The notes under the pieces were generated by a model. It had not been told where the DNA came from. It searched no databases and was given only the letters and a program-made list of their open reading frames with translations. DNA of 64,000 nt from NCBI GenBank assembly GCA_016699635.1, contig CP064983.1, forward strand, positions 3,176,078-3,240,077, in the 5' to 3' direction. A program made the translations under genes and the position numbers. The stretch comes from Bacteroidota bacterium (GTDB lineage Bacteria > Bacteroidota > Bacteroidia > AKYH767-A > OLB10). Of the stretch, positions 3,165 through 51,545 are shown piece by piece. Each line of letters begins with the position of its first letter. Positions within the stretch are counted from its first letter, which is position 1.

Positions 3165-3340
3165 CTATAATTAGTTGCCAAATGAGTTACCAAAGTAAGA
3201 AAACTTTTAATAGAATACTTACCGTTTAATAATTAAACACAACCATTCAATAAGTTAATGCAATATGTATATCATATAGCAACTAATATTGGATTATAAA
3301 TTCTTTCAAAAAATATGTTTAACTATTAAAAACAAAAAAT

Positions 3341-4980
3341 ATGAAACTCCTTTACACCTTAGCACTTTCACTTTTTACCGCACATTTAACATTTGCTCAA
3401 TTCAGTAGCGATCCCTCACAACCAATGCCGGTCTGCAATGCTGCACATGGACAATCTAACGTGATTAGTCTTCCTGATGGTAATGATGGAAATTATCTTT
3501 TCTGGCTCGACAACAGAGGATCTGTTAATACAACAATTTATGCGCTCTATGGTCAGCATTTAGATTCCGGTGGAAATCCTTTATGGGCAAACAATGGTAA
3601 AGTGATTCTTGATAAAGATACTGTTTCAATAAAATCATTCAATTGTGTATTGTTTGATGGTGGTATTTTAGTTACTTGGGTACAAGGTCAGAATTCATAT
3701 AATGATTCAATGTTTGTAAAGAAAATCAACCCTTCAGGCAATGATGTTTGGGCACAGCCAACTTTAATTGAATCGACAAATTTTTCGGCTTCAATTTTAG
3801 GAATTGAAACTTATGGGATAAAGGCAATCCCCAATGACTCCGTGCATTTATTAACTATAGTGTAGTTTATATAGGTGGATCAAGCGGAATTAAATTTAAT
3901 CGGATTAATTTCAACGGAGTAAAACAATGGGCTGCCTCAAAAACAAATTCCTTGCCCGGCTATACTTTCTTTACTTATCCGGGAATACAAAACACTTTCT
4001 ATTCATTATCCAGAGGAAATGGAATGGGATCAGGAATTTATATTCAAAAATATAATATGCAAAGTGTACCACAATGGGCAAATCCGGTAGATATTTCTCA
4101 AGGTGTTTCAGGAAATGGACTTGCAGGGAATTGCAAATTCCTGACAGATAACTCAGGAAATTCTTATGTAGTTTGGGATAGTTATTCATCTGCCGATATC
4201 CTTCTGACTAAGATTGATGCTGCCGGTAATTTTGCATGGACTCCATCATATAAATCAGTTGTTAACTTGGCAAATACTTTACAAGGCAGATCAGATGCTG
4301 TTTTAAATAACAACAACTTGTTTATCACTTGGAGCGATAACAGAATTACTGGTCAGGCTACAGCTTTTACACAAAAGTATAATGCAAGCGGTGCTGCACA
4401 GTGGATAGCCAATGGAGTACAATTAGGGGTAATCAACTCCAATTATTGTTATCCAAAAATAGCATATAGTGACAGTGGCTCTGTAGCCATAGCATATATT
4501 ATGGGAGCACCTTGGGAATTATATGTACAACGTGTTCGAAGCAATGGTACTTTAACTTGGAGCGGCAGTGGTAAAATACTTGCAAGTGACCATAGTTTCA
4601 TCAACTATGCAGACTATACCATCACTTCTGATTCAAATGGATGTAATGCTGTTTTTTGGCATGAATCAAGTACAGGAGATTTATATGGTGCAAAAGTTTG
4701 CAGTGATGGTACGCTTGTAACTGTTGCAGAACTATTAAATAAAGAAGTTAAAATATTTCCGAATCCGACAGCAGATCAAATTAATATTGAGTTGGGCTCA
4801 TCGAACCTGATTAATGAAATTGAAATTCTTGATATGCAGGGGAGAATATTAAAAACTGTGATTATTGAAAACGGACAGCAGTACCAAACGCTTAATGTAA
4901 ATGAATTTTCAAAAGGTGTTTATCTGATAAAGATAAAAGCAGGTAATGAAAGTATCATCAAAAAAGTTATTATTAAATAG
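3341..4980 (+). pseudogene. Secreted beta-propeller-like repeat protein with a T9SS C-terminal sorting domain. It is split into ORFs 3341..3865 and ~3856..4980 by a frameshift near 3845
   Basis: ORF1 has a signal peptide (MKLLYTLALSLFTAHLTFAQ). The ORF2 frame stays open upstream to ~3856 and ends with a Por/T9SS CTD (KIFPNPTADQINIE...GVYLIKIKAGNE). The junction sits in gcatttatta. Confidence 0.55.
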
Positions 4981-4997
4981 CCTTTAACCAAAACAGC

Positions 4998-5024
4998 AAA
5001 ACTCCGGCATAAAGCCGGAGTTTT
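4998..5024 (+). terminator. Rho-independent terminator hairpin
   Basis: aaaactccggc-ataaa-gccggagtttt, immediately 3' of the T9SS cargo gene. Confidence 0.6.
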
Positions 5025-5040
5025 AAATATAATAACGTCC

Positions 5041-5175
5041 ATGTCAAAACAACCTCCAAAAATTAATCATGAAATAATTCGTGAAAGGGCATTAGATCGA
5101 ATTTTATTTATTCTTGAAATTGCTTTGGTTATTACCTTAATAGCCTTATGTGGTGTAATTATTACTTCACTTTGA
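5041..5175 (+). CDS. Candidate 44-aa small membrane protein upstream of the oxidase operon
   Basis: ATG at 5041 gives MSKQPPKINHEIIRERALDRILFILEIALVITLIALCGVIITSL*, a single hydrophobic helix. It is below the ORF-track length cutoff. Confidence 0.2.
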   Translation: MSKQPPKINHEIIRERALDRILFILEIALVITLIALCGVIITSL

Positions 5176-5641
5176 GAAATTAATGTATAAGTTAAATTCT
5201 ACAAGAAATCATTACGAGATTTTAAGAGAAACTTATGTTAAATTACGATTTAAGGTTTAAGCTACATGTGCCAAACATAAATGTTATAAAAGTATTTATA
5301 TACTTCTTTTGGATTCCTAAGAAATAGTTTATACGTTTGCACTACCTAATGTAGTTTAACGGATACATGGTAGCATGTTTTATATTTTATGCACCTGTAA
5401 CCCATAAAAAGGTTATATTACATCAACGGGAAATTGTTTTTGGAGGCAACCAAAATTCCGCTGGCTTGATGGCAATGCTTTGCCCCATTTTAAGAGGTAA
5501 AAAATGTCATAGATTCTTCAAAAATCTACAACTTTTCTCTACTCAATTTATTCATTCAGGAATTCGGATTAACAAACCTATACAAGTTAATCTTAATCAT
5601 CATATACATCACATTCACTTTAATTATTTAAACTAAAAGTT

Positions 5642-6193
5642 ATGCAACAACATTCCATTATGTTATTTTTTATGCTGCTTGTTGGTATTGGCACTATATT
5701 TTTTGTGTCAATCTTTATGTCTTCACTCAAAGCTGACAATGATTCAACAGGTGTAAAGAACCTGTTAAAAAAACGTTTTTGGTTTACCTTAATTCTCATT
5801 GTTGTACTTGGCATTTTTGCTGCAGCAACTTTACCAAAATCCCCATACTTCACTTATGCGAATGAAACACCTTCAACTGTGATTCATGTTGGCACAATGC
5901 AATTTTCATTTTTTCTTTCCACTAAACCCATTGACCCTAAAAGTCCAAGTGGAGAAACAATTGAAATCCCGCACGACCAACTCGTAGAATTCAGAGTAAC
6001 AAGTTTTGATGTCAATCATGGATTTGCTGTTTACGATCCTTCAATGCGATTGATTACTCAGGTACAGGCAATGCCCGGCTATGTCAACAACCTACGCTAT
6101 AAATTTACTGAACCTGGCGAGTATCACATTTTTTGCCTTGAGTTTTGTGGCACAGGGCATCCCGTTATGCAAACAACATTTAAAGTTATTTAA
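5642..6193 (+). CDS. Heme-copper oxidase subunit II with a CuA centre (cupredoxin)
   Basis: The CuA ligand pattern is H...C-x-E-x-C-x3-H-x2-M, seen in HIFCLEFCGTGHPVM. There is one N-terminal TM helix. Confidence 0.8.
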   Translation: MQQHSIMLFFMLLVGIGTIFFVSIFMSSLKADNDSTGVKNLLKKRFWFTLILIVVLGIFAAATLPKSPYFTYANETPSTVIHVGTMQFSFFLSTKPIDPKSPSGETIEIPHDQLVEFRVTSFDVNHGFAVYDPSMRLITQVQAMPGYVNNLRYKFTEPGEYHIFCLEFCGTGHPVMQTTFKVI

Positions 6194-6208
6194 TAAAAAA
6201 ATTAAATC

Positions 6209-7660
6209 ATGAATATAGATTCACTTAAGCTTAAAAAAATAAGCGCACTTTGGATAATTGTCATTCTTGTACTTTTTATTGCAAGTATTGTACTTGGAAT
6301 TCTTATGAGGCTCAATCAGGGAAAAGTTATTGAACAATCGCCACTTACTTTCTATACAAACATGACAACACATGGTTTAACCATGATTGGGATTTGGTTT
6401 GCTGCAGGAATGGTTGCCGTAAACTATCTTTTACAACGGTATGTGAAGACAAGTTATGGTGTTAACTTGTTTGCCTTTATTCTTACTGTTATTGGTGTTG
6501 TAATGCTTTGGGTAACTACCTATGCAGGTAAGTTTAGCACAGGCTGGACTTTTCTCTATCCATTACCATTCAGAGATCTCGGTTCGGAGAGTTGGTCAAC
6601 ACCGTTGTTTCTTATTTCGTTAACAATATTAGGTGTAGGATGGCTGGTGTGGAGTGTTAGTCTGATGGCTCAGATTTTTAAAAAATATACATTGGCCCAA
6701 GCCTTTGCATGGCAACATTTCAAAAGTAATCCAACTGTAGAGACACCACCTTTTATATTGATAACAACAGTGACATTAGTTGGTGTCATTGCCTCGTTAA
6801 TTGCAGCAGTAATTGTTATTGTATTGTATTTCGCAGAATATTTCTCTCATGGAGATTTTGTCAATGATGCTTTGCTGATGAAAAACCTGATCTATTTCTT
6901 TGGTCATACCATTGCAAACGAAATGCTTTATTTAGGCTTGGCTGTTATCTATGAAATTTTTGGAGAAGTAAGCGACAGGCCAAAATGGAAAATGACCTGG
7001 TATATTTCATTGGCATGGAATTGTGCAATGGTATTTATTTTAACTGCATTTTTTCATCACCTATACATGGACTTTGTGCAACCACAGGCTTTGCAAATTG
7101 TTGGACAATTGGTATCATATCTTGCAAGTATTCCATCTGCTGCTGTGACGGTTTTCAGTATTGTAGCAGCAGTTTATGGAGTTAAGGTAAGATGGTCTAT
7201 TGTAAACCTATTGTTCTTTCTTGGTGTTGCCGGATGGGTAATTGGTGGCTTAGGGGCTGTCATTGATGCAACTATTTCAAATAATATTATGCTGCATAAT
7301 ACGCTTTGGGTTCCTGCACACTTTCATACCTACAATGCCATGGGAAACGTTTTGTTTAGCATCGGTTTCTTTTACTGGTTCTCTACGCAATATGTTGACA
7401 AATTAGTTTTAAGTAAGCTTACAAAATACACTTTAACACTTCTAATTGTCGGTGGCATTGGCTTCTTAATGGCATTCTATGTGGCCGGTGCAAATTCAAT
7501 TCCAAGAAGATATAGTACATATCCTGTTGAACTCACATCAGGGCCTTATCTTGCTAAGGTAGGTGCTTTGTTTGCAACAATATATCTTATCGCTATTTTG
7601 ATATTCTTTTATAATATTGCTAAACGATGTTTCGTTATTTTGTCTGCTTCTTCGCGCTAA
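6209..7660 (+). CDS. Heme-copper oxidase subunit I (divergent; oxidase / NO-reductase superfamily)
   Basis: It has 12+ TM helices. All six canonical His are present: THGL in helix II, FFGHT in helix VI, FFHHLY in helix VII and PAHFHT in helix X. The HPEVY tyrosine is absent; the sequence reads GHTIANEMLY. Confidence 0.75.
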   Translation: MNIDSLKLKKISALWIIVILVLFIASIVLGILMRLNQGKVIEQSPLTFYTNMTTHGLTMIGIWFAAGMVAVNYLLQRYVKTSYGVNLFAFILTVIGVVMLWVTTYAGKFSTGWTFLYPLPFRDLGSESWSTPLFLISLTILGVGWLVWSVSLMAQIFKKYTLAQAFAWQHFKSNPTVETPPFILITTVTLVGVIASLIAAVIVIVLYFAEYFSHGDFVNDALLMKNLIYFFGHTIANEMLYLGLAVIYEIFGEVSDRPKWKMTWYISLAWNCAMVFILTAFFHHLYMDFVQPQALQIVGQLVSYLASIPSAAVTVFSIVAAVYGVKVRWSIVNLLFFLGVAGWVIGGLGAVIDATISNNIMLHNTLWVPAHFHTYNAMGNVLFSIGFFYWFSTQYVDKLVLSKLTKYTLTLLIVGGIGFLMAFYVAGANSIPRRYSTYPVELTSGPYLAKVGALFATIYLIAILIFFYNIAKRCFVILSASSR

Positions 7661-8379
7661 CATGTTTTAGCTTTTTAGGTTATGCTAATGATAATCACTC
7701 TGACTTCAGGGAAGAGCAGAATCTTTACGGAAAAATTTATAACGCACCACTCGGAATTGTTGGTAATAATAAAGTATCTTCTGTTGAAGAATTATATAAT
7801 CAGAAACCATTAATCATAGCTTTAGTTTTTACAAGATGTTATGGCATCTGCAATCCATTCTTACTTCAATTGAGCGAAAATATAAAGCATCTACAAAGCA
7901 ATTCAGATTTTAATATTTTAGTTATAAGTTTTGATCCAAGAGATAACCTTCAGGATATGACTAATCTTTCAAAGCAATATGGCCTTGAGAATAATCTTCA
8001 ATGGAACTTTGCAATAACCGATAGTATTGATGCATTTATTAATTCCATAGGATTTATTCCGAAATGGGATAGCGTTATCAAACAGTTTGACCACGATGCT
8101 TTGCTGGTTGGTGTAAATGAGAAAGGGCTTATAACTAAAAATCTTTTGGGAATCAGAATTGTGGAAGACGTACATAAAATGATAAGCAGCATTAATAATG
8201 TATTTACTCCCTCCTACCGTTTACCAACAAAAAGTAATATATTTTCATGCTTTAACTACGATCCGAAAACACAAACAAACAGACCTGGCTTAGGACTTTT
8301 ATTTGTAGCCTTGCCTGCAATCATAACTTTTCTTATTGTTACAATAATTGTTATTAAATCAAAGAGAACAGTTTCTTAG
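7627..8379 (+). CDS. SCO1/SenC-family copper chaperone (thioredoxin fold) with a C-terminal TM anchor
   Basis: The CxxxC motif appears as TRCYGICNP, and a conserved His lies downstream (QFDHDALL). It overlaps the subunit I 3' end, so the three genes form one operon. Confidence 0.65.
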   Translation: MFRYFVCFFALTCFSFLGYANDNHSDFREEQNLYGKIYNAPLGIVGNNKVSSVEELYNQKPLIIALVFTRCYGICNPFLLQLSENIKHLQSNSDFNILVISFDPRDNLQDMTNLSKQYGLENNLQWNFAITDSIDAFINSIGFIPKWDSVIKQFDHDALLVGVNEKGLITKNLLGIRIVEDVHKMISSINNVFTPSYRLPTKSNIFSCFNYDPKTQTNRPGLGLLFVALPAIITFLIVTIIVIKSKRTVS

Positions 8380-8484
8380 AATTTTAAACACACTTTTTGT
8401 CACTTAAAATAAATTATCGGAACTATAAAACCATAATCAATGCAATTTTGTTTTCTGATATGAAGTTTAAAAATTAAAACAGTT

Positions 8485-8838
8485 ATGTCATCAGTAAAAA
8501 TAAAACGGATTTATGAAGCACCGGACAAAAGTGATGGTTATAGAATGTTGATTGACAGGCTATGGCCAAGAGGTGTTAAAAAAGAAAATGCTGCCATTGA
8601 TGAATGGAATAAAGATATTGCATCATCTTCAGAGCTAAGAGAATGGTTTGGTCACGACCCTGAAAAATTCAAAGAATTTACAGCTCGTTATACAAAAGAA
8701 CTTCACAACAAGAATGATGAATTAAAGCAAATAGCCGGAATTGCAAAAAAGCAAAACTTGACGTTACTTTATGGCGCAAAAGATACAGAGCACAACCAAG
8801 CTGTAGTTTTACAAAAAGTATTGAGTAAAATGATATGA
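8485..8838 (+). CDS. DUF488 family protein
   Basis: The DUF488 signature reads LIDRLWPRGVKKE...ELREWFGHDPEKFKEF. Confidence 0.7.
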   Translation: MSSVKIKRIYEAPDKSDGYRMLIDRLWPRGVKKENAAIDEWNKDIASSSELREWFGHDPEKFKEFTARYTKELHNKNDELKQIAGIAKKQNLTLLYGAKDTEHNQAVVLQKVLSKMI

Positions 8839-9302
8839 GCACCAAACCAATTAAGCGACATGAGGCAATACAGTCCATAAGCAGAGAACATTATCAAGGA
8901 TTACTTTTTGGTTCTAAAATCAGGATGGGGCTTAAAAAACAAATAGAGCCTGACCGAATGGCAAAGTACGCTGTTTGGTTTTATAAAGAACATCTCATTC
9001 CTCACTTTGAAATAGAAGAGAAATATTTATTTCCGGTTATGAGCCCTGAAAATGAAATGATTCAAAGAGTACTTAAAGAACATCGCATGCTTGCTGATTT
9101 ATGTAAATCAGAATTGGAATTGGCTACAAACAGCAAACTTGAATTACTCGAAAAAACATTGGAAGCCCACATTCGCTTTGAAGAGAGAGTACTCTTTAAA
9201 GAAATTGGATCTATTGCTACATCTGAACAGCTCGAACTGATAAACAAACATCATAAAGAGGAAAAGTTTGTTGACAATTTATCTGACCCATTCTGGAAGT
9301 AA
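8835..9302 (+). CDS. Hemerythrin-like (HHE cation-binding) domain protein
   Basis: H/HxxxE pairs are spaced as in hemerythrin-like domains (EHYQG...HFEIEE...EHRML...HIRFEE). The start overlaps the DUF488 stop as ATGA. Confidence 0.55.
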   Translation: MSTKPIKRHEAIQSISREHYQGLLFGSKIRMGLKKQIEPDRMAKYAVWFYKEHLIPHFEIEEKYLFPVMSPENEMIQRVLKEHRMLADLCKSELELATNSKLELLEKTLEAHIRFEERVLFKEIGSIATSEQLELINKHHKEEKFVDNLSDPFWK

Positions 9303-9320
9303 CACCTACTCATAATTTCA

Positions 9321-9761
9321 ATGAACAACATGTTGCACTCAAACATACAAACAGAAAATATTTTAGTTGCCAGAAATACACGCCCGACAAGCATGCGTAT
9401 TTTAGTTTACAATTTCCTTGCAAAACAACAAGCTGCATTATCTATCACTGAGATTGAGAAACATTTTCAGCATGCTGACAGAATTACAATCTATCGTACT
9501 TTAAAAACATTTGAGGAGAAAGGCATTATACATAGCATTCAGGAAGATAATATAACCAAATATACTTTATGTGGATCTGCTTGTTCAGAACATACCCACT
9601 ACGATCAACATCTTCACTTTTATTGTAAGTCTTGCAAACAAACTACCTGCAAAACCGATATTGCCATTCCGCTAAACAACATTACCGGATTTAAAATTGA
9701 CGATATAACATTTTTTGCAAGAGGTATTTGCGAAAAATGCATTAACCCGACTTTGCAATAG
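9321..9761 (+). CDS. Fur-family metalloregulator, likely Zur given the neighbouring gene
   Basis: There is a winged-helix N-terminus plus C-x2-C...C-x2-C (CGSACSEHTH...CKSCKQTTC). Confidence 0.75.
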   Translation: MNNMLHSNIQTENILVARNTRPTSMRILVYNFLAKQQAALSITEIEKHFQHADRITIYRTLKTFEEKGIIHSIQEDNITKYTLCGSACSEHTHYDQHLHFYCKSCKQTTCKTDIAIPLNNITGFKIDDITFFARGICEKCINPTLQ

Positions 9762-9808
9762 GATTGCATTGACATCTGCCATAATTTTGTATTCAGAAAA
9801 TATATGGC

Positions 9809-11809
9809 ATGACGCATAAACACATTTACGACTCCAGCGGAAAACAACTTTGTTGTACTCTTGAAGATAATATTTATGAAAATGCAGGTCGTGTTGATTT
9901 GAAAGAAAATCACGATCACAATGATCATGACCATACGCATCATGAGTCCGGTATGTTTTCAATATATCTGCCCGGATTAGTTTCTTTAGTGCTTCTTCTG
10001 GCAGGAATGCATTTTGATTATTGGAATACCTTCTCCTGGTTTAATGGGTGGATTCGTTTAGTTTGGTATATAATAGCCTATATCCCGGTTGGATTTCCTG
10101 TAATCAAGGAAGCTTATATTGGAATTACAAAAGGAAATATTTTTTCTGAGTTTTTTCTGATGACAATAGCTACCGTTGGTGCATTTGCAATAAAAGAATA
10201 TCCTGAAGGTGTTGCTGTAATGTTATTCTATGCTGTGGGAGAATTACTTCAGACAATGGCTGTAAGAAGAGCAAAATCAAATATTAAAACCTTACTTGAT
10301 CAACGTCCTGATGTTGCAACAGTATTACGAAATAGTAACACTGTTTCTGTAGATGCTAACGATGTTGGCATTGGCGAAGTAATACTTTTAAAACCAGGCG
10401 AAAAGTTAGCACTTGATGGTATTTTACTTTCTGATAACGGAACTTTTAACACTGCTGCACTAACAGGAGAGAGTATGCCCGATGCAAAAGTGAAAGGAGC
10501 TTCAGTTCTTGCAGGCATGATTAACCTTAATACTGTTGTAAAAATTAAAGTCACAGCCGCTTATGAAGATAGCAAGTTGAGCAAGATGCTTGAATTAATT
10601 CAAAATGCATCTGCACAGAAAGCTCCCACTGAATTATTCATCAGAAAATTTGCAAAAGTTTATACCCCTATTGTTGTTGGACTTGCTGTTGCCATCACTT
10701 TATTGCCCTACTTTTTTGCTCATGAGTATATTTTTCGTGATTGGTTTTACAGAGCTTTAATATTTTTAGTCATATCATGTCCTTGTGCATTGGTAATAAG
10801 TATTCCTTTAGGATACTTTGGAGGCATTGGCGCTGCCGGCCGGAATGGTATTTTGGTTAAAGGCAGTAATTATTTAGATGTACTTGCATCGGTGCAGCAT
10901 GTTGTGATGGACAAAACCGGAACAATTACTGAAGGCGTATTTAAAGTTCAGGAAGCTTTAATTTTTCCGGAAGAAAATAGAAATAAAATTTTGCAAATGG
11001 TTAATGCGCTTGAAAAACACAGTACACATCCTGTTGCAACAGCCATTCACAACTATGTTTCAAATACCTCAACAATTGAACTGGAAAAGGTAGAGGAAAT
11101 TTCAGGTCATGGAATGAAAGCATTTGTTAATGGCAAAGAGTTGTTAGTAGGAAATTTCAAGCTTTTATCCTTACATAACATATCATTTAATGTTGATCCT
11201 GCTACCATAAAGCATACCGTCATTGCCATTGCTTTTGATAGAAAATTTGCAGGCTACATCATCATTGCAGATAGCATTAAAACCGATGCTGCCGCTGCCA
11301 TACAAAAATTAAAACAGATGCATGTAGATGTTACGATGTTGAGTGGTGATAAAACAACTGTTGTAAATTCAGTTGCTGAGCAAACAGCAATTTCTCATGC
11401 TTATGGTGAGTTACTGCCTGAGGATAAAGTTGAAAAAGTTAAATCCATAATCAATCAAAAACAAACAGTAGCTTTTGTTGGTGATGGTGTTAATGATGCA
11501 CCCGTTATTGCATTAAGTCATGTTGGTATTGCAATGGGTGGACTTGGCAGCGATACTACTATTGAAACTGCAGATGTTGTAATTCAGGATGACAACCCGA
11601 TTAAAATTCCTTTAGCAATAAATATTGGAAAGCAAACAAAGAAAGTGGTCTGGCAAAATATCACTATGGCGTTTGTAATAAAAGCAATAGTTTTAATATT
11701 AGGCTCAGGTGGATTGGCAACTATGTGGGAAGCAGTGTTTGCAGATGTTGGTGTTGCACTATTAGCAATCATCAATGCAATGCGTTTATTAAAAATGAGA
11801 TTCGATTAG
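9809..11809 (+). CDS. Heavy-metal (Zn/Cd/Pb-type) P1B-type ATPase
   Basis: It has an N-terminal His-rich segment HDHNDHDHTHHE, the CPC motif SCPCALVIS, DKTGTIT and the hinge VGDGVNDAP. Confidence 0.9.
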   Translation: MTHKHIYDSSGKQLCCTLEDNIYENAGRVDLKENHDHNDHDHTHHESGMFSIYLPGLVSLVLLLAGMHFDYWNTFSWFNGWIRLVWYIIAYIPVGFPVIKEAYIGITKGNIFSEFFLMTIATVGAFAIKEYPEGVAVMLFYAVGELLQTMAVRRAKSNIKTLLDQRPDVATVLRNSNTVSVDANDVGIGEVILLKPGEKLALDGILLSDNGTFNTAALTGESMPDAKVKGASVLAGMINLNTVVKIKVTAAYEDSKLSKMLELIQNASAQKAPTELFIRKFAKVYTPIVVGLAVAITLLPYFFAHEYIFRDWFYRALIFLVISCPCALVISIPLGYFGGIGAAGRNGILVKGSNYLDVLASVQHVVMDKTGTITEGVFKVQEALIFPEENRNKILQMVNALEKHSTHPVATAIHNYVSNTSTIELEKVEEISGHGMKAFVNGKELLVGNFKLLSLHNISFNVDPATIKHTVIAIAFDRKFAGYIIIADSIKTDAAAAIQKLKQMHVDVTMLSGDKTTVVNSVAEQTAISHAYGELLPEDKVEKVKSIINQKQTVAFVGDGVNDAPVIALSHVGIAMGGLGSDTTIETADVVIQDDNPIKIPLAINIGKQTKKVVWQNITMAFVIKAIVLILGSGGLATMWEAVFADVGVALLAIINAMRLLKMRFD

Positions 11810-41960: not shown

Positions 41961-43215
41961 ATGGTTCAGGAAAAACGGGCTTTAATCTTTAATTACTTAT
42001 TCTGGCTTACAGGGTTTTTGTTACCATTTGACCAGCCTTGGATTAATTATGCGCTTGGCCTGTTGCTTTTATTTTTTGTTGTGCAATGGCTGACAGGAAA
42101 ATATCAGATTAAAATTCAGAACCCTTTGTTGTGGCTGCCTCTCTCTTATTTTCTACTGCATTGTATAGGCATGCTTTACACTCAATCGCAATATACTGGT
42201 TGGATTGAATTATCGGCAAAAAGTTCTTTCCTTATTTTTCCACTACTCTTCTCGTCCAATGCCATTTCGCGTGATATAATTAAGACCTTTAAGTTATTTT
42301 TTATAGCAGGAAGCGGAATAATTTGCCTGTATAATCTGCTGCTGTCATTCAATCAATATATTCAGCATGGCAACATGAGTGCATTTTATTATGTCGCTTT
42401 TTCCAAAGGTATGCATGTGCAGTATCTGACAATTTATTTAAACCTTGCTATATTATTTATTTTAGAAATACTTTTTGACACTTCCTCTCAAACAAAACCA
42501 ATCAAAAAAGCTTATTGGGTATTATTGGTCTTGTTCTTTTTAGTCAATATTACCTTGCTTGCCAGCAGACTTGCCACCGTAGTATCTTATGCAACAATTT
42601 TGTTTTATACCGTTGTGAGAATTATTTCATCACCAAATTACCTACGATACTCCATTCTTGCAGCATTGTTTGCAGCTTCTGTGCTGATTATAGATTATTT
42701 TGCATTTAAGAAGATTAACCGCTTCGAGCAGGTCGAAATATTTTAAAAGAAAACACAAACTATGTTGACTTTTCAAAAACTGAATATAACAGCACCACGT
42801 TAAGAATTCCACTTTGGATAAATGCTTATGAAGTCATTCAGCGCAATCCTTTATTTGGTGTAGGCACGGGCGATGTTAAGTCAAGTTTAGATTCTATGTA
42901 TCTGAAAAATAAATTTACTTATGCCCATCAGAATCACTTCAACCCACACAATCAGTATCTACAAACGGGAGTTGCTTTTGGACTGACAGGAATTTCTTTT
43001 TTAATGTTAATGATGCTTATTCCGCTCTATTATGCAATCAGGAACAGACATTATATTTTCATTGCATTTCAATGTATTTTTTATTGAATATGCTCACAGA
43101 GTCAATCTTAGAAAGGCAGGCGGGCATTATTTTATTCTGTCTTTTTTATGCCATTTTCAGCTCTGAATATGTTGCCGCAGCATTAAAGACCGTACCCGAA
43201 CAAAACAATACGTAA
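41961..43215 (+). pseudogene. O-antigen ligase / Wzy_C-domain polytopic membrane protein, split into >=4 frames
   Basis: Wzy_C hallmarks appear in different frames: TTLRIPLWINAYEVIQRNPLFGVGTGD and AHQNHFNPHNQYLQTGVAFGLTG. The C-terminal tail runs to 43215. Confidence 0.55.
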
Positions 43216-43237
43216 TTTTACAGCCTAATTTCAATTT

Positions 43238-44460
43238 ATGAAAGTACCATTTGCGCCACCTCGCATGGACCAACGTGTCATTGATGAAGTTGCAGACACA
43301 CTTCTTTCGGGCTGGATAACAACAGTGCCTAAGACTAAAAAGTTTGAAAAACTACTTACAGCATACTGCAATGTGCCTAATGTGCTTGCCCTGAATTCTG
43401 CTACTGCAGGTCTTGAAATAATGCTTCGCTGGTTTGGTGTAAAAGAAGGTGATGAAGTAATTTTACCGGCATACACCTACTCTGCTACTGCCAACGTAGT
43501 GATTCATTGTGGTGCAAAACCTGTGTTTGTTGATGTGGGTGATGATTTTAATATTCTGCCCTCTGAAATTGAAAACGCCATCAACAAAAATACAAAGGTG
43601 ATTATGCCTGTTGATTTTGGTGGGCTGCCCTGCGATTTTCAAAAAGTAAATAATATATTTCAATCAGAAAATATCAAAAATAAATTTGTGCCTGCAACCG
43701 ATGTGCAGCAGCAATTAGGACGCATTTTAGTTTTGTCTGATGCTGCACATTCTTTTGGCGCTACTGTCAACAATATTAAAACTGGAGCGCTGACCGATGT
43801 TTCTGTTTTTTCTTTTCATGCTGTAAAAAACCTAACTACAGGTGAAGGTGGTGCCATTGCATTAAACCTGCCAAAGCCTTTCGATAATCAAAGCATATAT
43901 GACTATCTGTGCATTTACACCTGCATGGACAGAATAAAGATGCACTGGCAAAAAATGCAAAAGGCAATTGGCGTTACGATATTATTGAAGCCGGATTTAA
44001 ATGTAATATGACAGATATTATGGCGTCCATTGGTCAAGTAGAACTTGAACGCTATGCAGAAACATTAGAACGCAGAAAACAAATTGTTGCAAACTACAAT
44101 GAGGCATTTGCAAAATATCCATGGGCGCAATTGCCCGAATTTAAATCAAACTGGCGTGAAAGCTCCTATCACCTCTATCCTATCAGAATAAAAAACTGTA
44201 CAGAAAAACAACGTGATGCCATTATGCAAAAAATGTTTGATGCTGATATAGCAGTGAATGTACATTTTATTCCTGTTCCTATGTTTTCGTTTTATACCAA
44301 ATTAGGTTATAGTCTTCAACATTATCCCAAAGCAAAGGACAACTATGAAAGAGAAATTTCTTTACCGCTTTTTTACAACCTCACCGAAGAACAACAACAA
44401 TATGTTATTGACAATTTGATAAAGGCTGTGAATAAGACGCTGTACATCACTTGCAATTAA
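43238..44460 (+). pseudogene. DegT/DnrJ/EryC1/StrS-family PLP-dependent sugar aminotransferase with a frameshift at ~43905-43925
   Basis: DALLSGWITTVPKTKKFE...SATAGLEIML is followed by the Schiff-base lysine region FSFHAVKNLTTGEGGAI, then NMTDIMASIGQVELERY in a second frame. Confidence 0.75.
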
Positions 44461-44920
44461 CTCCTGAATGATTTTGTGCTTTTCTTCTTCATTAAAATAT
44501 TCTGTGCTTTTTGAATGATTTTTTTGCCCATGTTTTACACTTTTTTTGTGTAACTCTATTTTAGGGCAAGACATTGCAGGTTTTCAAAAGATTCATCTCC
44601 TACTTTAACCTCCCGATAGCTATCGGGATTATCAGACTTAATTCTCTTGTGCCATCGAATATAAATTTGATACAATGTTAGGTCTTCTTGTTTTAATTCC
44701 GGTGTTATAACCTAACTGCCGCATCCATCTAAGAAGCTGTCCGTGTTCTTCAACCTCACCTGTGTATTTTTCCCAAATCTGTACTTTGGTACATTGAGTT
44801 GCAATTAGCTCCTGAATGATTTTGTGTTTTTCTTCTACGGCAAAATATTTACCCGCTTTTTGAATGATTTTTTTATCCATGTTTTACACTTTTTAGTGTA
44901 AACCTATTTCAGGACAAGAC
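44450..44920 (-). mobile_element. Degenerate IS3-family remnant: two direct copies of a ~130-bp segment (44450..44578 and 44796..44920), an orfA-like gene, an 18-bp perfect palindrome, and no orfB/integrase
   Basis: Both copies begin ttgcaatta(a/g)ctcctgaatgattttgtg and end gacaagacat. The palindrome tcccgatagctatcggga lies at 44610..44627. Confidence 0.55.
44638..44880 (-). CDS. IS3-family transposase OrfA-like HTH protein (80 aa; remnant)
   Basis: KYFAVEEKHKIIQELIATQCTKVQIWEKYTGEVEEHGQLLRWMRQLGY fits the HTH_Tnp_1 pattern (F..E.K..IV.E......I..KYGI.....L..W.RQ). Confidence 0.5.
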   Translation of the reverse strand: MDKKIIQKAGKYFAVEEKHKIIQELIATQCTKVQIWEKYTGEVEEHGQLLRWMRQLGYNTGIKTRRPNIVSNLYSMAQEN

Positions 44921-44943
44921 ATGTGTGTGCTTTTGTGTGTTGG

Positions 44944-45363
44944 CTACTTTGCATTTAGTTCTTCCCTTAGTTTATTCATTGAGTTTTCAAACAGTTTATT
45001 GCTTTTCAATTTACATTCCCAAATAGTTAATACTGTCCAACCTGATTTTTTTAATTCTGCCTTTACTTTTTTGTCTCGTTCAATATTGTTCTGAATTTTT
45101 GTTTTCCAAAATTTTGCATTTGAAGTTGGCAACTTTGCCTTGTTGCAATTATGTCCATGCCAAAAACATCCATGAACAAAAACTATCGTTTGATACTTGG
45201 GTAAAACTATATCTGGTGTCCCTGCAAGAGTTTTTACATTTTTCCGAAACTTAAATCCTTCTTTAAACAAAAACTTTCTGACTGATATTTCCGGCTTAGT
45301 TTCCTTCCCGGAAATTGAAGCCATAATTTCACTTCGTTTCCGTTTAGAAAAAATGTCAGCCAT
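44944..45363 (-). CDS. vsr: Very-short-patch-repair endonuclease (T:G mismatch-specific)
   Basis: The Vsr signature is FVHGCFWHGH...TPDIVLPKY...VLTIWECKL. The start overlaps the upstream gene's end by 8 nt. Confidence 0.85.
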   Translation of the reverse strand: MADIFSKRKRSEIMASISGKETKPEISVRKFLFKEGFKFRKNVKTLAGTPDIVLPKYQTIVFVHGCFWHGHNCNKAKLPTSNAKFWKTKIQNNIERDKKVKAELKKSGWTVLTIWECKLKSNKLFENSMNKLREELNAK

Positions 45364-47137
45364 TTAATGCACGAATTGATTCAATAATTGTTACAATATC
45401 GTTGTAACTATTTGGTTTATCACTCAGCCACTTTTCTAAAAATGTTTTCTCACTTGCTTCAATATTTCTCTTATCACCAGTCATTGCCTCCGCAACTAAA
45501 AGAAATTTCTCTTTGAAATCTTGTGTAGCGTTGATTCTTTGAATGTATTCAATTTTACCCATCGCAGTCAAAATAGTTTCAGCTAAAACTTGATTCCAAA
45601 TAATTTCTTCTGGAACTGATAATGGTAAGTAGGAAACATTTCGCAAATAAAATTTCAGATACTTTTCTCGCAACACTTTTTCTTGGTCTGCTCTTGCCCC
45701 TGCATTTGGATTTCCGTCAGGATAAAACTTAACATTGACTCCTGTTTGATTTTGGATTTCCTGTTGGTATCGTTCATTGGTTTGTTCTGCTGCTACAATA
45801 GAATCAGGATTAAAGTGAGCATGTCTTTGGTCTCCGTCAAAAACTATAAACTTATTCCGTTCGTTTGCATGACTGTAAACACTAATGAAATGTTCTTTAA
45901 TAACGCTTTCACCTCCCGTGTAAAAAGTAACATTGAAAAGTGAAGCAGTTGCTTGTCCTAATTCTCTTAATACACCATCAATAATTTGCTTTGAAAGCAA
46001 ATCTTCAACAATGATTTGTTTTCCTTGCCGGATTTGTTTGCTCCAAATGATAAAACGCTTCATCAGGTGTGATTTCATTTTTAACATTGAATTTTCCAGA
46101 AGGTAATAGTGAGAAAACTTTTATTGCGTTTGGCGGAAGTTCCTCAATAATACTTGGTGAGTGGGTTGAGATTACAACTTGTAATCTTTTTCGTCTTGTT
46201 TCTTCAAGCAAAAATTGCTTCAATCGTTTTTGCGCTCCCGGATGCAATGAAACTTCCGGCTCATCAAGTAAAATGAGAGAATATTCTTTTGCTCCTAAAA
46301 CTTCAAGCACCAACTTTACAACTGCCATTTCTCCGCTTCCTGCAAACGCTTCGGAATATGAGTAACTGGCGGTTTCAAAAATTACGGAGTAGCCCCATTC
46401 TTCAAAAAGTTTATGCTTTACAAACTTTCCCGAAACATATTTTTTACCAAGTATGGTAGAAATATGCTGAAGTTCAATTGCTGTGAAAGTTTTGAGTTGC
46501 TCGTTTTTGTTTTCACCGTAGCGATGAATTATAACATTTGTTCCGTCAATAATTCTTCGAAGAAAAACTGAATGCTTCCGTAAGTAGTCCTGTTTGTTAT
46601 TTATCGTTTTAGACTTTCTTGGTTTCTTGAAATAAAAGTATTTGTCAAATGCACTTAACTCTGAACGGAAATCAATATACACTACATCTTTTTCAATCGG
46701 TTGATTTCTTTTTCCCTCTGCTATCTTCTGCATTCCGTAGCTGATATTCGGTCTTGCAGTTTCCCAATAGTCCGGATTGTTTCGTTTGAAAATTCTTTGT
46801 TTCAAAACTTCAAGCGGTCTGCCACGATTGTCTTTGTAAACATAAAAGAAGCTATGCCTATCGCCTCCTTCCGAAACTTCTACAATCGGGTCAACAGCAG
46901 TTGAAAACCAAAATTCAAACGGAGTATTTTTTTCGGTGCTCCATAAAGTGCATGAAGTGTTGAACTTTTTCCCGAACCGTTTTGCCCTACAAAAACTGTC
47001 AGAGGAAAATCAAAAATTATTCGTGTGTTTTTTTCAAGGTTTCGGAAATATGGAAACTGAATATACTCAATGAAATTTCTGAAAGCATTTCTTGCTTTCA
47101 TTCTTGAAATTTCAGCTATGAGAGTTGGTATATTCAC
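45356..47137 (-). pseudogene. OLD-family nuclease-like protein: ABC-type ATPase (Walker A/B, D- and H-loops) fused or coupled to a C-terminal Toprim domain; three ORFs in shifted frames
   Basis: ORF 46880..47137 has Walker A VGQNGSGKSS. ORF 46005..46805 has Walker B/D-loop LILLDEPEVSLHP and H-loop ISTHSP. ORF 45356..46087 has Toprim motifs IIVEDLLSK and FIVFDGDQ. The ORFs overlap by 83 and ~75 nt. Confidence 0.6.
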
Positions 47138-47142
47138 AAATG

Positions 47143-48770
47143 CTATGGTTTTTCAGAGTCGTTAAGTCGTTTGAATAAATGAGATAACAAACTAAGGAAG
47201 TCCAAACAATCTTTTTCTGAAAACAAACCTGTTTTACTTAACTCAAGGTGTTCCTCGTGTTGCAAAGGGTTTCTGCCGCCTGCAACAATACCTTCGGATA
47301 GATAGTGTTGTCCTTCTTCAATATTGGTTATTGTATCTTTTGTAAAATCTGTTCCATCAGTTTTCTTATACTTTTTCGTTACCGAAAGTTTACGACCAGA
47401 AAAAACTTCTCCCATCATACTTCTTTCGCTGCCATTTGTGCTACCTGACTTCTTTCTTACTTCTGAGGTATATCGTTTTAATGCTTCAATAAAAGCCGTG
47501 TAATAGTCAGCACTCTGATAATATTTTTCAGACACCACTTTAATTTCATTTTCTAAATTTCTCCAATGGAGATTTGCATATTCAGGGGCTATATCATGCA
47601 ATAATCTTGTCACCACCTGTTGTGTGTCTTCTGAAATTTCAGGTGTGTCATCCAATAGGTTTACAATTGTTTCAACTTGCCCTTGCACATTTTGAGGAAG
47701 TTTTTCTAACCAATCTTTTACATTCAAGTTTACCTTTTCACTTATCTTCTTTTTCTTTTTCTCCTTACGAAATTCACGCCACTGCCTTTCTATTATTGAA
47801 AGGCATGATGCAATATATTTCCTGAGTGCGGATGTCTTGGCATTTTCCCAGTCAATGGATTGACGGTTTGTTGAGATTACATCTTCTTCCCAATTGTCAA
47901 TAAAATCTACATTCAACCATCCTGTGGCATAAGAATAAAAGTGGCTTGATTCTGATGGACCAAAAAATTCAGGTGTGTTAACCATTCTGCCGTTAGCAAA
48001 AAGTGTAACGCCTCTGAGAGCAGCTTTGAGAGGTTTTTCTGTGGTAATTATTGTTCCATGAATTTGAACTTTGTCGGAATAATCCTTCTCATTTACTTTG
48101 ATAATTTCTTGTATGTCCCACTCAAATTCAGGAGTAATGTTATCATACTTCAGTTTGTTATCAATCTTTATCGGCTTGCTATCATTCAGCAATAAGTAAA
48201 CAATAAACTTGTCTTGAAAGTTGAAAAGTTTTGCAATGCTTTCTGCATATTCTTCAAGAGGAAATCCGGTTTTTCTTTTCAGATTGGTTAATGTGATTCT
48301 TGTTCCTTTGAAAATTTCCTTTTCTGATAAATGGTCAAATCTGGGTTCATAATCTTTCCCTTTCCAAGCAAGTATTTCATTCCAGTCAAGATTGAAACTT
48401 ACTCCCGATTTTCCTTGGCAAGTTGTAATGTTTATAGTGTCGCCAATTCCAAATAGAGCTAACTTTCCTAATCCTTTTTTTCCTGTTGGAATTCTATCGC
48501 AACTTGATTTTTGACCTTCCTCTCGTCTGTTTCTTCCTATTCTTAAAAAGTAATCATTCACTTCCGCAAACGACATTCCCGTTCCGTTATCCTCAACAAT
48601 TACTTTTTCTCCCCTTCGTCATACAAACGCACATGAACCTCTGTAGCACACGCATCATAAGCGTTTGCAATTAATTCCGCTAATGCCGGTGGCATGTTGG
48701 AATACATTTTAACACCAAGATGTTTTATGGTGTTAGCTTCAAAGGTCATGTAAAGTTTATCATTGCTCAT
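47143..48770 (-). pseudogene. MutL/MORC-like GHKL ATPase with a C-terminal HEPN (Rx4H) domain; frameshift at ~48577-48600
   Basis: ATG at 48770 overlaps the dcm stop as ATGA. Bergerat motifs: N-box ELIANAYDA, then in the 477-aa ORF frame G1 (DNGTGM), G2 GKKGLGKLALFGIGD and GTRITL. The C-terminal HEPN motif is GGRNPLQHEEH. Confidence 0.6.
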
Positions 48771-49844
48771 TTCGGATTACAATTTATGATGCTTGCAGCA
48801 ACACGCATTGATAATTGCGGTGGAACCGCATTGCCAATCAATCTTGCTGTTGATGCAATTGAAGTAGAAAGAAATTTGTAATCAGTGTCAAAAGTTTGCA
48901 GCGTTGCACCTTCTCTTAATGAAATGGCTCTGTTCTGTTCTGGATGAGCAAATCTTCCGTTGGTTATACTATAAAACTTTTGTTGTGATTGTTGGTCCAG
49001 GTTTGTCCCAAAACATTCTACCATAGATGTCTTGAAATGAGTTGTCTTTGCCAACATAAGCCGGAATTTGCAAGTCAGTATCTTTCCACGAAGTTCTTGT
49101 TCCTCCGTCATGTGGAGTTAAGAGCAATCGCTTTAAATTATTGTCTGATAGTCCGGCTGAACTGTGAAGGAACTCCGTCTTATCTTTTTGCCCCGCTGTA
49201 ATTGGTTTGAAAACCTTTTTATTGCCAATGAAATTCCGAACTGTCGGCAGCTTTGTTTTTGTGTCGGGAAGTGGCAAAGATATTTTGTCGGTAACTCGTG
49301 ATGCAATCAACAGGAATCTTCTTCTTGTTTGTGGCACTCCGTAATGGCTGGCATTAATTACTTTGTATTTGTAGTGATAGTTTTCTTTTTCTAGAAAGTC
49401 AAGAAATGATTTCAAAGGGCTTTCATCTAAACGATTTAAAATCCCTGGAACATTTTCAACCACTATGTAACCAGGTTTGAAGTAATCAACAAATCTCTGA
49501 AAGTCCTTCAATAAGTTTTTTGTTTCATGTGCCTTAGTTTTATCGGTTTGAATCTTGCTCCAGTATTGGCATGGGCTGCACCCAATGAAAATCATTTTTT
49601 TGTCATTGCGTTTTACTTTCAGCTCTTTTTCAATTCTTGAAAAAGCTAAGTCCTGAATGTCAGCATGTATAAATTTTGAATCGGGATTATTAGTTGTATA
49701 CGTTTCTTTACACTCTAAATCAATATCAATTCCGCCAACAACGTTTACTCCTGCCTTCCGAAAACCGCTTGTCATGCCGCCTCCGGAACAGAAGAAATCC
49801 ACAGCTTTAAATTTTCTTTTTGTCTTTGATTTTTTACCTTTCAT
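48767..49844 (-). pseudogene. dcm: DNA (cytosine-5)-methyltransferase, frameshifted between the TRD and motif IX
   Basis: Motif I is DFFCSGGGM, IV is GCSPCQYWS, VI is ENVPGIL and VIII is QTRRRF. In a second frame, IX is RAISLREGATLQTF and X is GNAVPP. The junction is at acaaaagtttta. The likely start is the ATG at 49844. Confidence 0.8.
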
Positions 49845-49904
49845 AAACGGCTGCGAATTTATGATTTTCACTCTTAAATTCATACGAAATCGCAATAAAG
49901 CGTT

Positions 49905-49966
49905 GGCAAAAAGTGGCTCTTTTTGTTTTGCCTCTGTGGTGGGTCGTGTGTTGCGGCAAAACAAAA
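49905..49966 (-). promoter_or_regulatory. Overlapping alternative hairpins in the dcm 5' leader
   Basis: ggcaaaaag/ctttttg (49905-49925) and ttttgttttgcc/ggcaaaacaaaa (49921-49966, 22-nt loop) share the ttttg segment, so they are mutually exclusive. Confidence 0.3.
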
Positions 49967-50339
49967 TGTGCCACTTGTGCGGTTGCCATAGAAATCATTT
50001 TTTTTTGTGCGTTGGCGGTGTTTTAATTTTTTGAAGGTTGCCTGTTGGTTAGAAGTGCTGTCATAATTATTACTTGTCATCTTAAATGTTTGTTCAAAGT
50101 CCGTCCGTTTAATGTCCGCATGGTCGCAAATAGAGTTACCGATAACGAAGAAGGGATTAACGAAGTTTAAAAAAGAAGGAGATAGAAAGCACACACTCTC
50201 CGCACCGATACGCTTTATTACCTGCACTCACTTTCAAGTGGCTGTAATGCCCTTCTTTTTTAAATTTCGTTTAATCTATTGTTATGCGCGCGTGCTACGA
50301 TCTACACGAAGAGTCAGATCTATATTCACTTATTATAAA

Positions 50340-51169: not shown

Positions 51170-51300
51170 TTTGCCTTAGGAAGTTTGAATGTTTGGCAAG
51201 TTGCAAGGTTTAGAAGGTTACAATGTTTTGAATGTTTGAAGGTTTTGAATGTTACAATGTTTTGAAGGTTTGAGGGTTTTTAAAATGTTGTTGCCTTGAA
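51170..51300. repeat. Short-period tandem repeat tract
   Basis: Units aaggtt(t/a)/gaatgtttg/acaatgttttgaa recur about 8 times. Confidence 0.5.
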
Positions 51301-51339
51301 CTTGCAATGTCTAAATTGAATTCTCTTTCAAAATTTTCA

Positions 51340-51545
51340 AACTTTTCAGCCGTGGCTAATTTTCAAACTTGTCAGCCGTTGCTGATTATCTAATTATCAA
51401 ATTTTCAAATTACCTCAGTATTATTTACTCCATCACTCCTATCAGCCGTGGCTAATTTTCAAATTATCTAATTATCAAATTTTCAAATTACCTCAGTATT
51501 ATTTACTTCATCACTTCTATCAGTTGTGGCTCAGCCGTGGCTGAT
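51340..51545. repeat. Two direct copies of a ~65-bp unit, each bounded by the motif tcagccgtggct(a/g)at
   Basis: The unit tctaattatcaaattttcaaattacctcagtattatttact(c/t)catcact(c/t)ctatcag occurs at 51388..51452 and 51466..51528. The motif tcagccgtggctaat or a variant occurs at 51346, 51372, 51442 and 51530, and on the reverse strand at 33306. Confidence 0.55.

Follow-up and report, generated by a model that had tools for sequence, protein, structure and literature searches.

A GHKL(paraMORC)-Ymh/HEPN protein encoded beside a Dcm-type methyltransferase in a Bacteroidota bacterium, a putative methylation-linked RNase effector

We analysed a 64,000-nucleotide stretch of contig CP064983.1 from the Bacteroidota bacterium assembly GCA_016699635.1 (positions 3,176,078 to 3,240,077, forward strand), referred to here as the window, in which a minus-strand operon at 49883..44944 comprises dcm, a gene for a GHKL ATPase fused to a C-terminal Ymh-type HEPN domain (GHKL-Ymh), a gene for an OLD-like ATPase and vsr. 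Our subject is the GHKL-Ymh gene, whose product is almost certainly a member of the GHKL(paraMORC)-Ymh family, the 'R.NmeAIP' type in REBASE and 'TIGR02391 family protein' at NCBI. The gene and the parts of its product, in amino acids (aa) of the repaired protein, are listed below.

47143..48770, minus strand: the GHKL(paraMORC)-Ymh/HEPN gene, which codes for 542 aa once its single frameshift is repaired; its stop codon is included in the end coordinate
48277..48770, minus strand: GHKL/Bergerat ATPase domain, aa 1-165 (PF13589 match; N-box at 48654-48677)
47857..48276, minus strand: S5-fold transducer (middle) domain, aa 166-305 (AlphaFold2 model with a predicted local distance difference test score (pLDDT) of 88; Foldseek matches)
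47572..47856, minus strand: helical linker, aa 306-400 (AlphaFold2 model)
47146..47571, minus strand: Ymh/TIGR02391 HEPN domain, aa 401-542 (PF09509, TIGR02391, AlphaFold2 model)
47257..47274, minus strand: Rx4H motif, R500-N-P-L-Q-H505 (conservation in 68 homologues)
48603..48608, minus strand: A-run GAGAAAAAG, five A long in the window (A5) against six in the references (A6); the missing A shifts the frame between N-box and G1

The repaired gene and its domains

As it stands in the window, the gene is split into a 56-aa open reading frame (ORF) at 48770..48600, which bears the N-box ELIANAYDA and ends at a TAA, and a 477-aa ORF in another frame at 48576..47143, which reads through that TAA. 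The addition of one A to the run GAGAAAAAG fused both ORFs into a continuous 542-aa protein that was 99.8% identical to the intact database protein P0001, the sole difference being L523V. Two independent assemblies have the gene intact and agree with the window at 99.6-99.7% identity across 8.5-12 kb; L001 is a metagenome contig from JGI and L004 a Flavobacterium sp. metagenome-assembled genome (MAG). When compared with both of these near-identical assemblies, window positions 43076-50035 contained about a dozen short indels, mostly of ±1 base in homopolymers, which break dcm, the GHKL-Ymh gene, the ATPase gene and the gene for a DegT aminotransferase; the latter is unrelated to the operon and is split into ORFs 43238-44011 and 43909-44460, with a homopolymer indel at 43919. 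Such a pattern suggests a systematic error of sequencing or of the consensus. Four indels lie within the operon (48978, 48603, 46926 and 46015), each a gain or loss of one A in an A-run, and at all four the two references agreed with each other against the window. Since intact near-identical assemblies exist and all of the operon indels are of this kind, with the references in agreement, the frameshift in the GHKL-Ymh gene looks like a homopolymer sequencing artefact and not the mark of a dead gene. An indel artefact between the N-box and G1 had been suspected in the first-pass annotation, made from the window's letters, and is borne out by the two intact references.

A genuine pseudogene, in an operon decaying as a whole, would account for the fact that three of the four operon genes are hit by frameshifts, four in all, and the copy of Neisseria gonorrhoeae DSM 9188 is likewise split, together with its Dcm. 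We nevertheless consider decay very unlikely, given the intact copies at 99.6-99.7% identity in two independent assemblies, the restriction of every operon indel to ±1 A in an A-run, the similar homopolymer indels in unrelated genes of the window, the lack of substitutions to stop codons and the single amino-acid change in 542 residues.

The N-terminal domain matched HATPase_c_3 (PF13589, Pfam) at aa 26-134 (E=4.6e-19, 69.3 bits against a cut-off of 25). The complete Bergerat motif set and the Lys/Glu-rich middle region described in the first-pass annotation were all located in the repaired protein, with the N-box at E32-D39, G1 (DNGTGM) at aa 61-66, G2 (GKKGLGKLALFGIG) at aa 97-110, GTRITL at aa 156-161 and the Lys/Glu-rich stretch at aa 329-346, within a predicted long helix. 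Conservation was counted over 68 homologues, down to 29% identity, and the ATP-site residues E32, N36, D39, D61, G63, G65, G97, K99, G100, G102, K103, G108 and T157 were invariant among them. The full AlphaFold2 model built from these homologues (pLDDT 88.4, predicted template modelling score 0.71) showed the GHKL domain, a domain of mixed alpha/beta structure, a helix of 37 residues and a C-terminus made up of helices only. In Foldseek searches, its first ~390 residues aligned to the N and M domains of Hsp90/TRAP1 and to the ATPase modules of SMCHD1, MORC2 and MORC3, with E-values from 3e-13 to 5e-11; at the level of the predicted structure, this part of the protein was confirmed as a GHKL and S5 transducer module. 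The features by which paraMORCs are recognized, namely the Bergerat motifs, an S5-fold directly after the GHKL domain and a methylase/Vsr neighbourhood, are all present. The linker holds the 37-residue Lys/Glu-rich helix of the model (aa 311-347) and is the segment with the lowest conservation (mean pairwise identity 0.36). Searches of the full protein against PDB sequences returned only weak GHKL matches (PMS2, Hsp83 and MutL), and a Foldseek search against viral structures (BFVD) gave no meaningful match.

The C-terminal domain matched Hypoth_Ymh (PF09509, Pfam) at aa 405-536 (E=2.7e-14, 53.5 bits against a cut-off of 25) and TIGR02391 (NCBIfam, E=1.5e-14, 54.1 bits against a cut-off of 39.45). 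With PF13589, PF09509 and TIGR02391 all above their curated cut-offs, and with matches far stronger than chance would give, the initial assignment as a GHKL ATPase with a C-terminal HEPN-type domain holds. Ymh was classed as a HEPN family with a conserved motif by Anantharaman et al. 2013 (PMC3710099). In the present protein, GGRNPLQHEEH occupies aa 498-508 and contains both R500 and H505; within RNxxxH, H505 was conserved in 68 of 68 homologues, R500 in 59 (with Lys in four more) and N501 in 61, and the Rx4H residues singled out at the first reading are thus kept among homologues as distant as 29% identity. For the C-terminal part, predicted to be all-helical, a separate AlphaFold2 model of aa 395-542 (pLDDT 89.8) had HEPN domains as its top-ranked PDB neighbours (2hsb, 1o3u, 1ufb and HepT toxins), at E-values of at least 0.67; these matches agree with a HEPN fold but do not reach statistical significance. 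A profile of the C-terminal domain found no relative among PDB sequences; when the C-terminal profile (A3) was searched against a database, all matches were fragments of this family, and no other Ymh architecture or HEPN family came up.

The methylase-linked neighbourhood and the spread of the family

The remaining genes of the operon are listed below.

48767..49883, minus strand: Dcm-type C5 cytosine DNA methyltransferase, 371 aa long where the gene is intact, as in the references; a surplus A at 48978 shifts its frame in the window
45356..47101, minus strand: OLD-like ABC ATPase, 581 aa when intact (AAA_15/AAA_21; PADLOC HEC-04, E=4.5e-35, ATPase-Toprim_I-B)
44944..45363, minus strand: Vsr very-short-patch repair endonuclease, 139 aa (PF03852, E=3e-33; TIGR00632)

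Both window fragments of Dcm matched PF00145 and the intact copy in L001 matched TIGR00675 (E=5e-43), and the dcm stop codon and the GHKL-Ymh start codon overlap as ATGA. Neighbourhoods were counted over 65 related loci with enough flanking sequence. Dcm was directly adjacent to the GHKL-Ymh gene in 55 of them (upstream in 51) and no more than 7 kb away in 64, Vsr was found within 3.5 kb in 34, and 24 loci consisted of Dcm and the GHKL-Ymh gene only. Dcm and GHKL-Ymh form the minimal conserved two-gene module. The remark in the first-pass annotation that pairing with a methyltransferase is unusual is refuted by these counts, which make Dcm a near-universal neighbour, and the association had been published in 2008 and 2013. 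Besides Dcm, Vsr and the OLD-like ATPase, no neighbour family occurred in more than four of the 65 loci.

The OLD-like ATPase gene carries two frameshifts in the window (46926 and 46015), and Toprim-like E and DxD motifs (IIVEDLL, FIVFDGDQ) were read by eye in the C-terminal half of its product. Since the gene recurs in eight of the related loci and sometimes stands between dcm and the GHKL-Ymh gene (L025, L036 and L046), these observations suggest that the OLD-like ATPase is an optional functional partner and not a chance insertion. A scan of the operon for sigma-70 promoters and terminators gave no more hits than expected by chance, Bacteroidota promoters being outside the coverage of the scan.

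Beside some family members lie ORFs that match or resemble restriction enzymes. An R.HpaII-family endonuclease (PF09561, E=6e-77) was found in L061 at 3265-4416, with homologous ORFs in L029 and L047 by blastp clustering, and a weak BsaWI-like ORF of 207 aa (E=8e-4) in L042 at 6381-7004, with homologous ORFs in L013 and L019. M.NmeAI methylates C5mCGG (PMC4676702), and the window Dcm is 51% identical to the Neisseria partner methylase, target recognition domain (TRD) included. The R.HpaII-family and weak BsaWI-like neighbours, together with the specificity of M.NmeAI, hint that the GHKL-Ymh family may be tied to CCGG-type methylation.

Relatives of the protein are widely scattered. At the 50% identity level, 304 clusters matched with E<1e-30, more than 120 clusters at 63-100% identity all carried PF13589 together with PF09509, and relatives were encoded in 232 of 185,579 species genomes, their hosts including Bacteroidota, Neisseria, Campylobacterales, candidate phyla radiation (CPR) bacteria, Methanoperedens and DPANN archaea. 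Annotations of homologues in plasmid collections were uninformative ('putative membrane protein', 'ATP-binding protein' or none). In two Candidatus Methanoperedens MAGs (L005 and L050, match at 7001-8626) the protein is 79-80% identical to the Flavobacterium-type protein and has Dcm and Vsr alongside; these archaeal copies reflect either very recent inter-domain transfer or bin contamination. In the N. gonorrhoeae DSM 9188 locus (L065, 1620-4585), Dcm and GHKL-Ymh are each split into two ORFs and vsr is intact; in N. gonorrhoeae 2022NG-0032 the tblastn match is a single full-length piece, with no annotated feature at that place. In three Chryseobacterium loci (L002, L016 and L018, ~1300-10400) the only Dcm is separated from the GHKL-Ymh gene, 4.6 kb further downstream, by a second GHKL system (HATPase_c_3/HEF_HK, Response_reg_2, Mrr_cat), which is followed by an HNH_2 gene and vsr; a single methylase there seems to serve two distinct GHKL effectors.

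Two further regions of the window were noted. Just downstream of vsr, the minus strand at 44362-44880 holds two short ORFs (70 and 80 aa) with the common motif EEKHKIIQELIA, neither of which matches Pfam; they look like duplicated or fragmented remnants of a helix-turn-helix transposase (IS3 OrfA-like) and may mark the edge of an island. The intergenic region 51183-51531 contains tandem arrays with a period of 17/34 at 51183-51280 and of 26 at 51332-51387, followed at 51385-51531 by two 78-nt units that are 94% identical, and it adjoins the 5' end of a gene for a C25 peptidase-family protein with a type IX secretion system (T9SS) tail.

Relation to restriction enzymes and other HEPN systems

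Both the architecture and the Dcm context of this protein were published from in silico work in 2008 and 2013, and the family is named in Pfam and TIGRFAM; the protein is not a discovery. Orlowski & Bujnicki 2008 described R.NmeAIP as a putative Type II restriction endonuclease (REase) in which a GHKL domain at the N-terminus is combined with Hypoth_Ymh at the C-terminus, and R.HgiDII as GHKL with an unassigned C-terminus (PMC2441816). The paraMORC GHKL+S5 ATPases were defined by Iyer et al. 2008, who placed them in restriction-modification (R-M) operons with Dcm and Vsr and assigned paraMORC3 a C-terminus of restriction endonuclease (RE) fold (PMC2292703), and Anantharaman et al. 2013 reported Ymh fused to paraMORCs in R-M neighbourhoods, "analogous to PrrC/RloC" (PMC3710099). 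The RloC-like, ATP-gated RNase imagined in the first-pass annotation is thus a published hypothesis, and the novelty implied there is overstated. Nothing architectural separates the present protein from R.NmeAIP and the paraMORC-Ymh proteins, which have the same architecture and the same m5C methylase context. Homologues of the R.NmeAIP subfamily from Neisseria, Uruburuella and Chelonobacter are 45-51% identical to it over the full length, whereas the present copy comes from a Flavobacterium-like Bacteroidota and its operon adds the OLD-like ATPase.

The closest comparison outside the family is with the restriction enzymes BbrUII and HgiDII. Their NCBIfam model, NF050001, matched aa 7-382 of the protein over profile positions 2-407 of 659 (E=1.2e-64), and PADLOC REase_II models cover aa 1-348. 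Membership of the BbrUII/HgiDII equivalog was rejected, the score being 219 bits against a cut-off of 550 and profile positions ~408-659 being unmatched. A sister group of 600-660-aa proteins, whose homology to the present protein is limited to aa 1-~385, matched NF050001 end to end (positions 2-654), and the C-termini of this group matched PD-(D/E)xK families (SduA_C at 4.5e-8, HSDR_N_2 and NucS_C). The GHKL domain, the S5 domain and the start of the linker are homologous between the two kinds of protein, and the BbrUII/HgiDII enzymes are also encoded beside Dcm-type methylases, while their C-terminal domain of ~250 aa, with weak PD-(D/E)xK matches, contrasts with the ~140-aa HEPN domain found here. 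Because the sister family has a PD-(D/E)xK-like C-terminus in this position, we place the HEPN domain in the nuclease slot; one GHKL+S5 chassis thus bears either a DNase-type or a HEPN domain in the same slot, beside the same kind of methylase. What this adds in detail to the literature is that aa 1-~380 are homologous to BbrUII/HgiDII, that HEPN takes the place of their PD-(D/E)xK-like C-terminus, and that the smallest conserved unit consists of Dcm and GHKL-Ymh. Pfam, NCBIfam and PADLOC scans of the 542-aa protein found no DNA endonuclease domain (PD-(D/E)xK, HNH, GIY-YIG, PLD or half-pipe).

By analogy, the protein resembles PrrC and RloC, which couple a dimerizing ATPase dependent on nucleoside triphosphate (NTP) to a HEPN RNase at the C-terminus and have a genetic link with R-M genes. 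The ATPase of those proteins is ABC/Rad50-like, in contrast to the GHKL type found here, their HEPN domains belong to another family, and the partner of PrrC is a Type I R-M complex and not a lone Dcm. RNase L and Ire1 combine a kinase-type nucleotide-binding domain with a KEN/HEPN RNase, and their dimerization builds the RNase site. The likeness to these enzymes, a putative nucleotide-driven N-terminal dimerization that would appose two HEPN domains, is one of analogy only, since these are signalling enzymes of eukaryotes whose N-terminal part has an unrelated fold. Sacsin also unites the Hsp90-like ATPase and C-terminal HEPN superfamilies in one polypeptide, and weak matches to sacsin models were obtained at the N-terminus (PF25794, E=0.02; NF047352, 2e-7; both below the cut-off), but it is a giant eukaryotic chaperone-like protein with another HEPN family, and the human version is without the catalytic motif. 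A Ymh-type HEPN domain is likewise part of an experimentally discovered anti-phage system, PD-Lambda-3, the C-terminal region of whose component B (PADLOC PD-Lambda-3_B, PDLC03987) matched aa 418-541 with E=4.2e-5; the N-terminal part of component B is different and contains no GHKL domain.

Proposed mechanism, alternatives and implications

We favour a reading in which GHKL-Ymh is an ATP-driven, methylation-linked RNase effector and the partner of the Dcm encoded upstream. By homology, Dcm would mark host DNA with 5-methylcytosine (5mC). The invariant motifs and the predicted fold suggest that the GHKL+S5 module binds ATP and dimerizes in the manner of MutL, MORC or Hsp90, and the genomic context suggests that this dimerization may be triggered or licensed by mark-free DNA, or by the loss or inhibition of Dcm, a specific trigger that we advance tentatively. 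Once dimerized, the protein would have its two HEPN domains side by side, and their RNxxxH motifs would make up a composite RNase site that is metal-independent, as the family and the motif indicate, and the resulting RNA cleavage would arrest the cell or the phage (growth arrest, abortive infection), with addiction stabilizing the module. Vsr would repair the T:G mismatches that arise from 5mC deamination, and the OLD-like ATPase would be an optional accessory. HEPN RNase catalysis is metal-independent and uses the 2'-OH of RNA, and because this chemistry needs the 2'-OH, RNA is favoured over DNA as the substrate; by analogy with other HEPN RNases, the protein is probably an RNA-targeting effector. 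A fuller version, which we regard as possible rather than probable, would make Dcm and GHKL-Ymh a self-contained R-M module with an RNA-cutting arm, in which an ATP-driven GHKL clamp reads missing 5mC (possibly at CCGG-type sites) on DNA that is incoming or has newly lost its protection and activates the HEPN RNase, leading to abortive infection or addiction and not to DNA cleavage.

Several points count against this proposal. The choice of RNA as substrate rests on general HEPN chemistry and not on Ymh data, and no feature found here shows how, or whether, the protein senses methylation. The Arg of Rx4H is missing from nine of the 68 homologues. In the literature, including that after 2014, we found no family member that had been tested biochemically or genetically, and no experimental report on any Ymh protein. 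Finally, the covariation between protein segments and the methylase TRD, with which a DNA-specificity region was sought, was weak, with Spearman coefficients of 0.15-0.38 and partial r ≤0.16, and phylogeny was a confounder.

The protein might instead be a true Type II restriction endonuclease, cutting unmethylated DNA at the site protected by Dcm by means of its C-terminal domain or of an unrecognized site, as the putative 'R.NmeAIP' label in REBASE implies. Its gene occupies the position of an R gene beside Dcm, two-gene modules are common, and the N-terminal 380 aa of the protein share homology with BbrUII and HgiDII, two REases that were named experimentally, and are largely covered, at aa 1-348, by the REase_II models. 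Against this, the PD-(D/E)xK-like C-terminus of those relatives is absent, no DNase family was detected by Pfam, NCBIfam or PADLOC, the NF050001 score falls well below its cut-off, and it is generally known that HEPN catalysis proceeds without metal via the 2'-OH of RNA, so that DNA should not be a substrate; we therefore judge DNA restriction by this protein unlikely. Somewhat less unlikely, though still doubtful, is a guard of the PrrC/RloC style, whose RNase would stay silent while bound to an R-M partner (Dcm or a nearby REase) and would be freed by a phage anti-restriction attack on that partner, with no direct sensing of DNA methylation. This has been proposed in print (PMC3710099), and it agrees with the complete R-M systems next door at some loci (the R.HpaII-family and weak BsaWI-like cases above) and with the weakness of the covariation with the methylase TRD. 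It sits poorly with the fact that most loci are without any restriction enzyme, 24 of the 65 having only Dcm and GHKL-Ymh, and with an ATPase that is GHKL and not of the ABC type of PrrC and RloC.

A role outside defence has also to be weighed, in which the protein would be a MutL-like accessory to very-short-patch repair, working with Vsr on Dcm-derived T:G mismatches. The occurrence of Vsr within 3.5 kb in 34 of the 65 loci and the weak GHKL matches to MutL models are compatible with it, and a functional interaction of MutL with Vsr is known from E. coli (cited in PMC2292703). Vsr is missing from roughly half of the loci, however, the conserved HEPN catalytic motif would be given no role, the sister family consists of restriction enzymes, and mobile defence genes typically show the kind of sporadic spread seen here, over bacteria, CPR and archaea and with Bacteroidota and Methanoperedens copies ~80% identical. 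We find this reading extremely unlikely and, on the points raised against each, rejected both it and the pseudogene reading.

If the methylation-linked RNase effector that we favour is real, an immune effector directed at RNA would take DNA methylation as its mark of self, restriction-modification and abortive infection would be less sharply separated, and a GHKL-driven case would be added to the design of an NTP-dependent dimerizer joined to HEPN that is represented by PrrC, RloC, RNase L and Ire1. With ~230 species genomes the family is widespread, and with two genes it is compact enough to be tested easily; its value lies in the compact idea, open to experiment, that the 'restriction' arm is a methylation-linked RNase.

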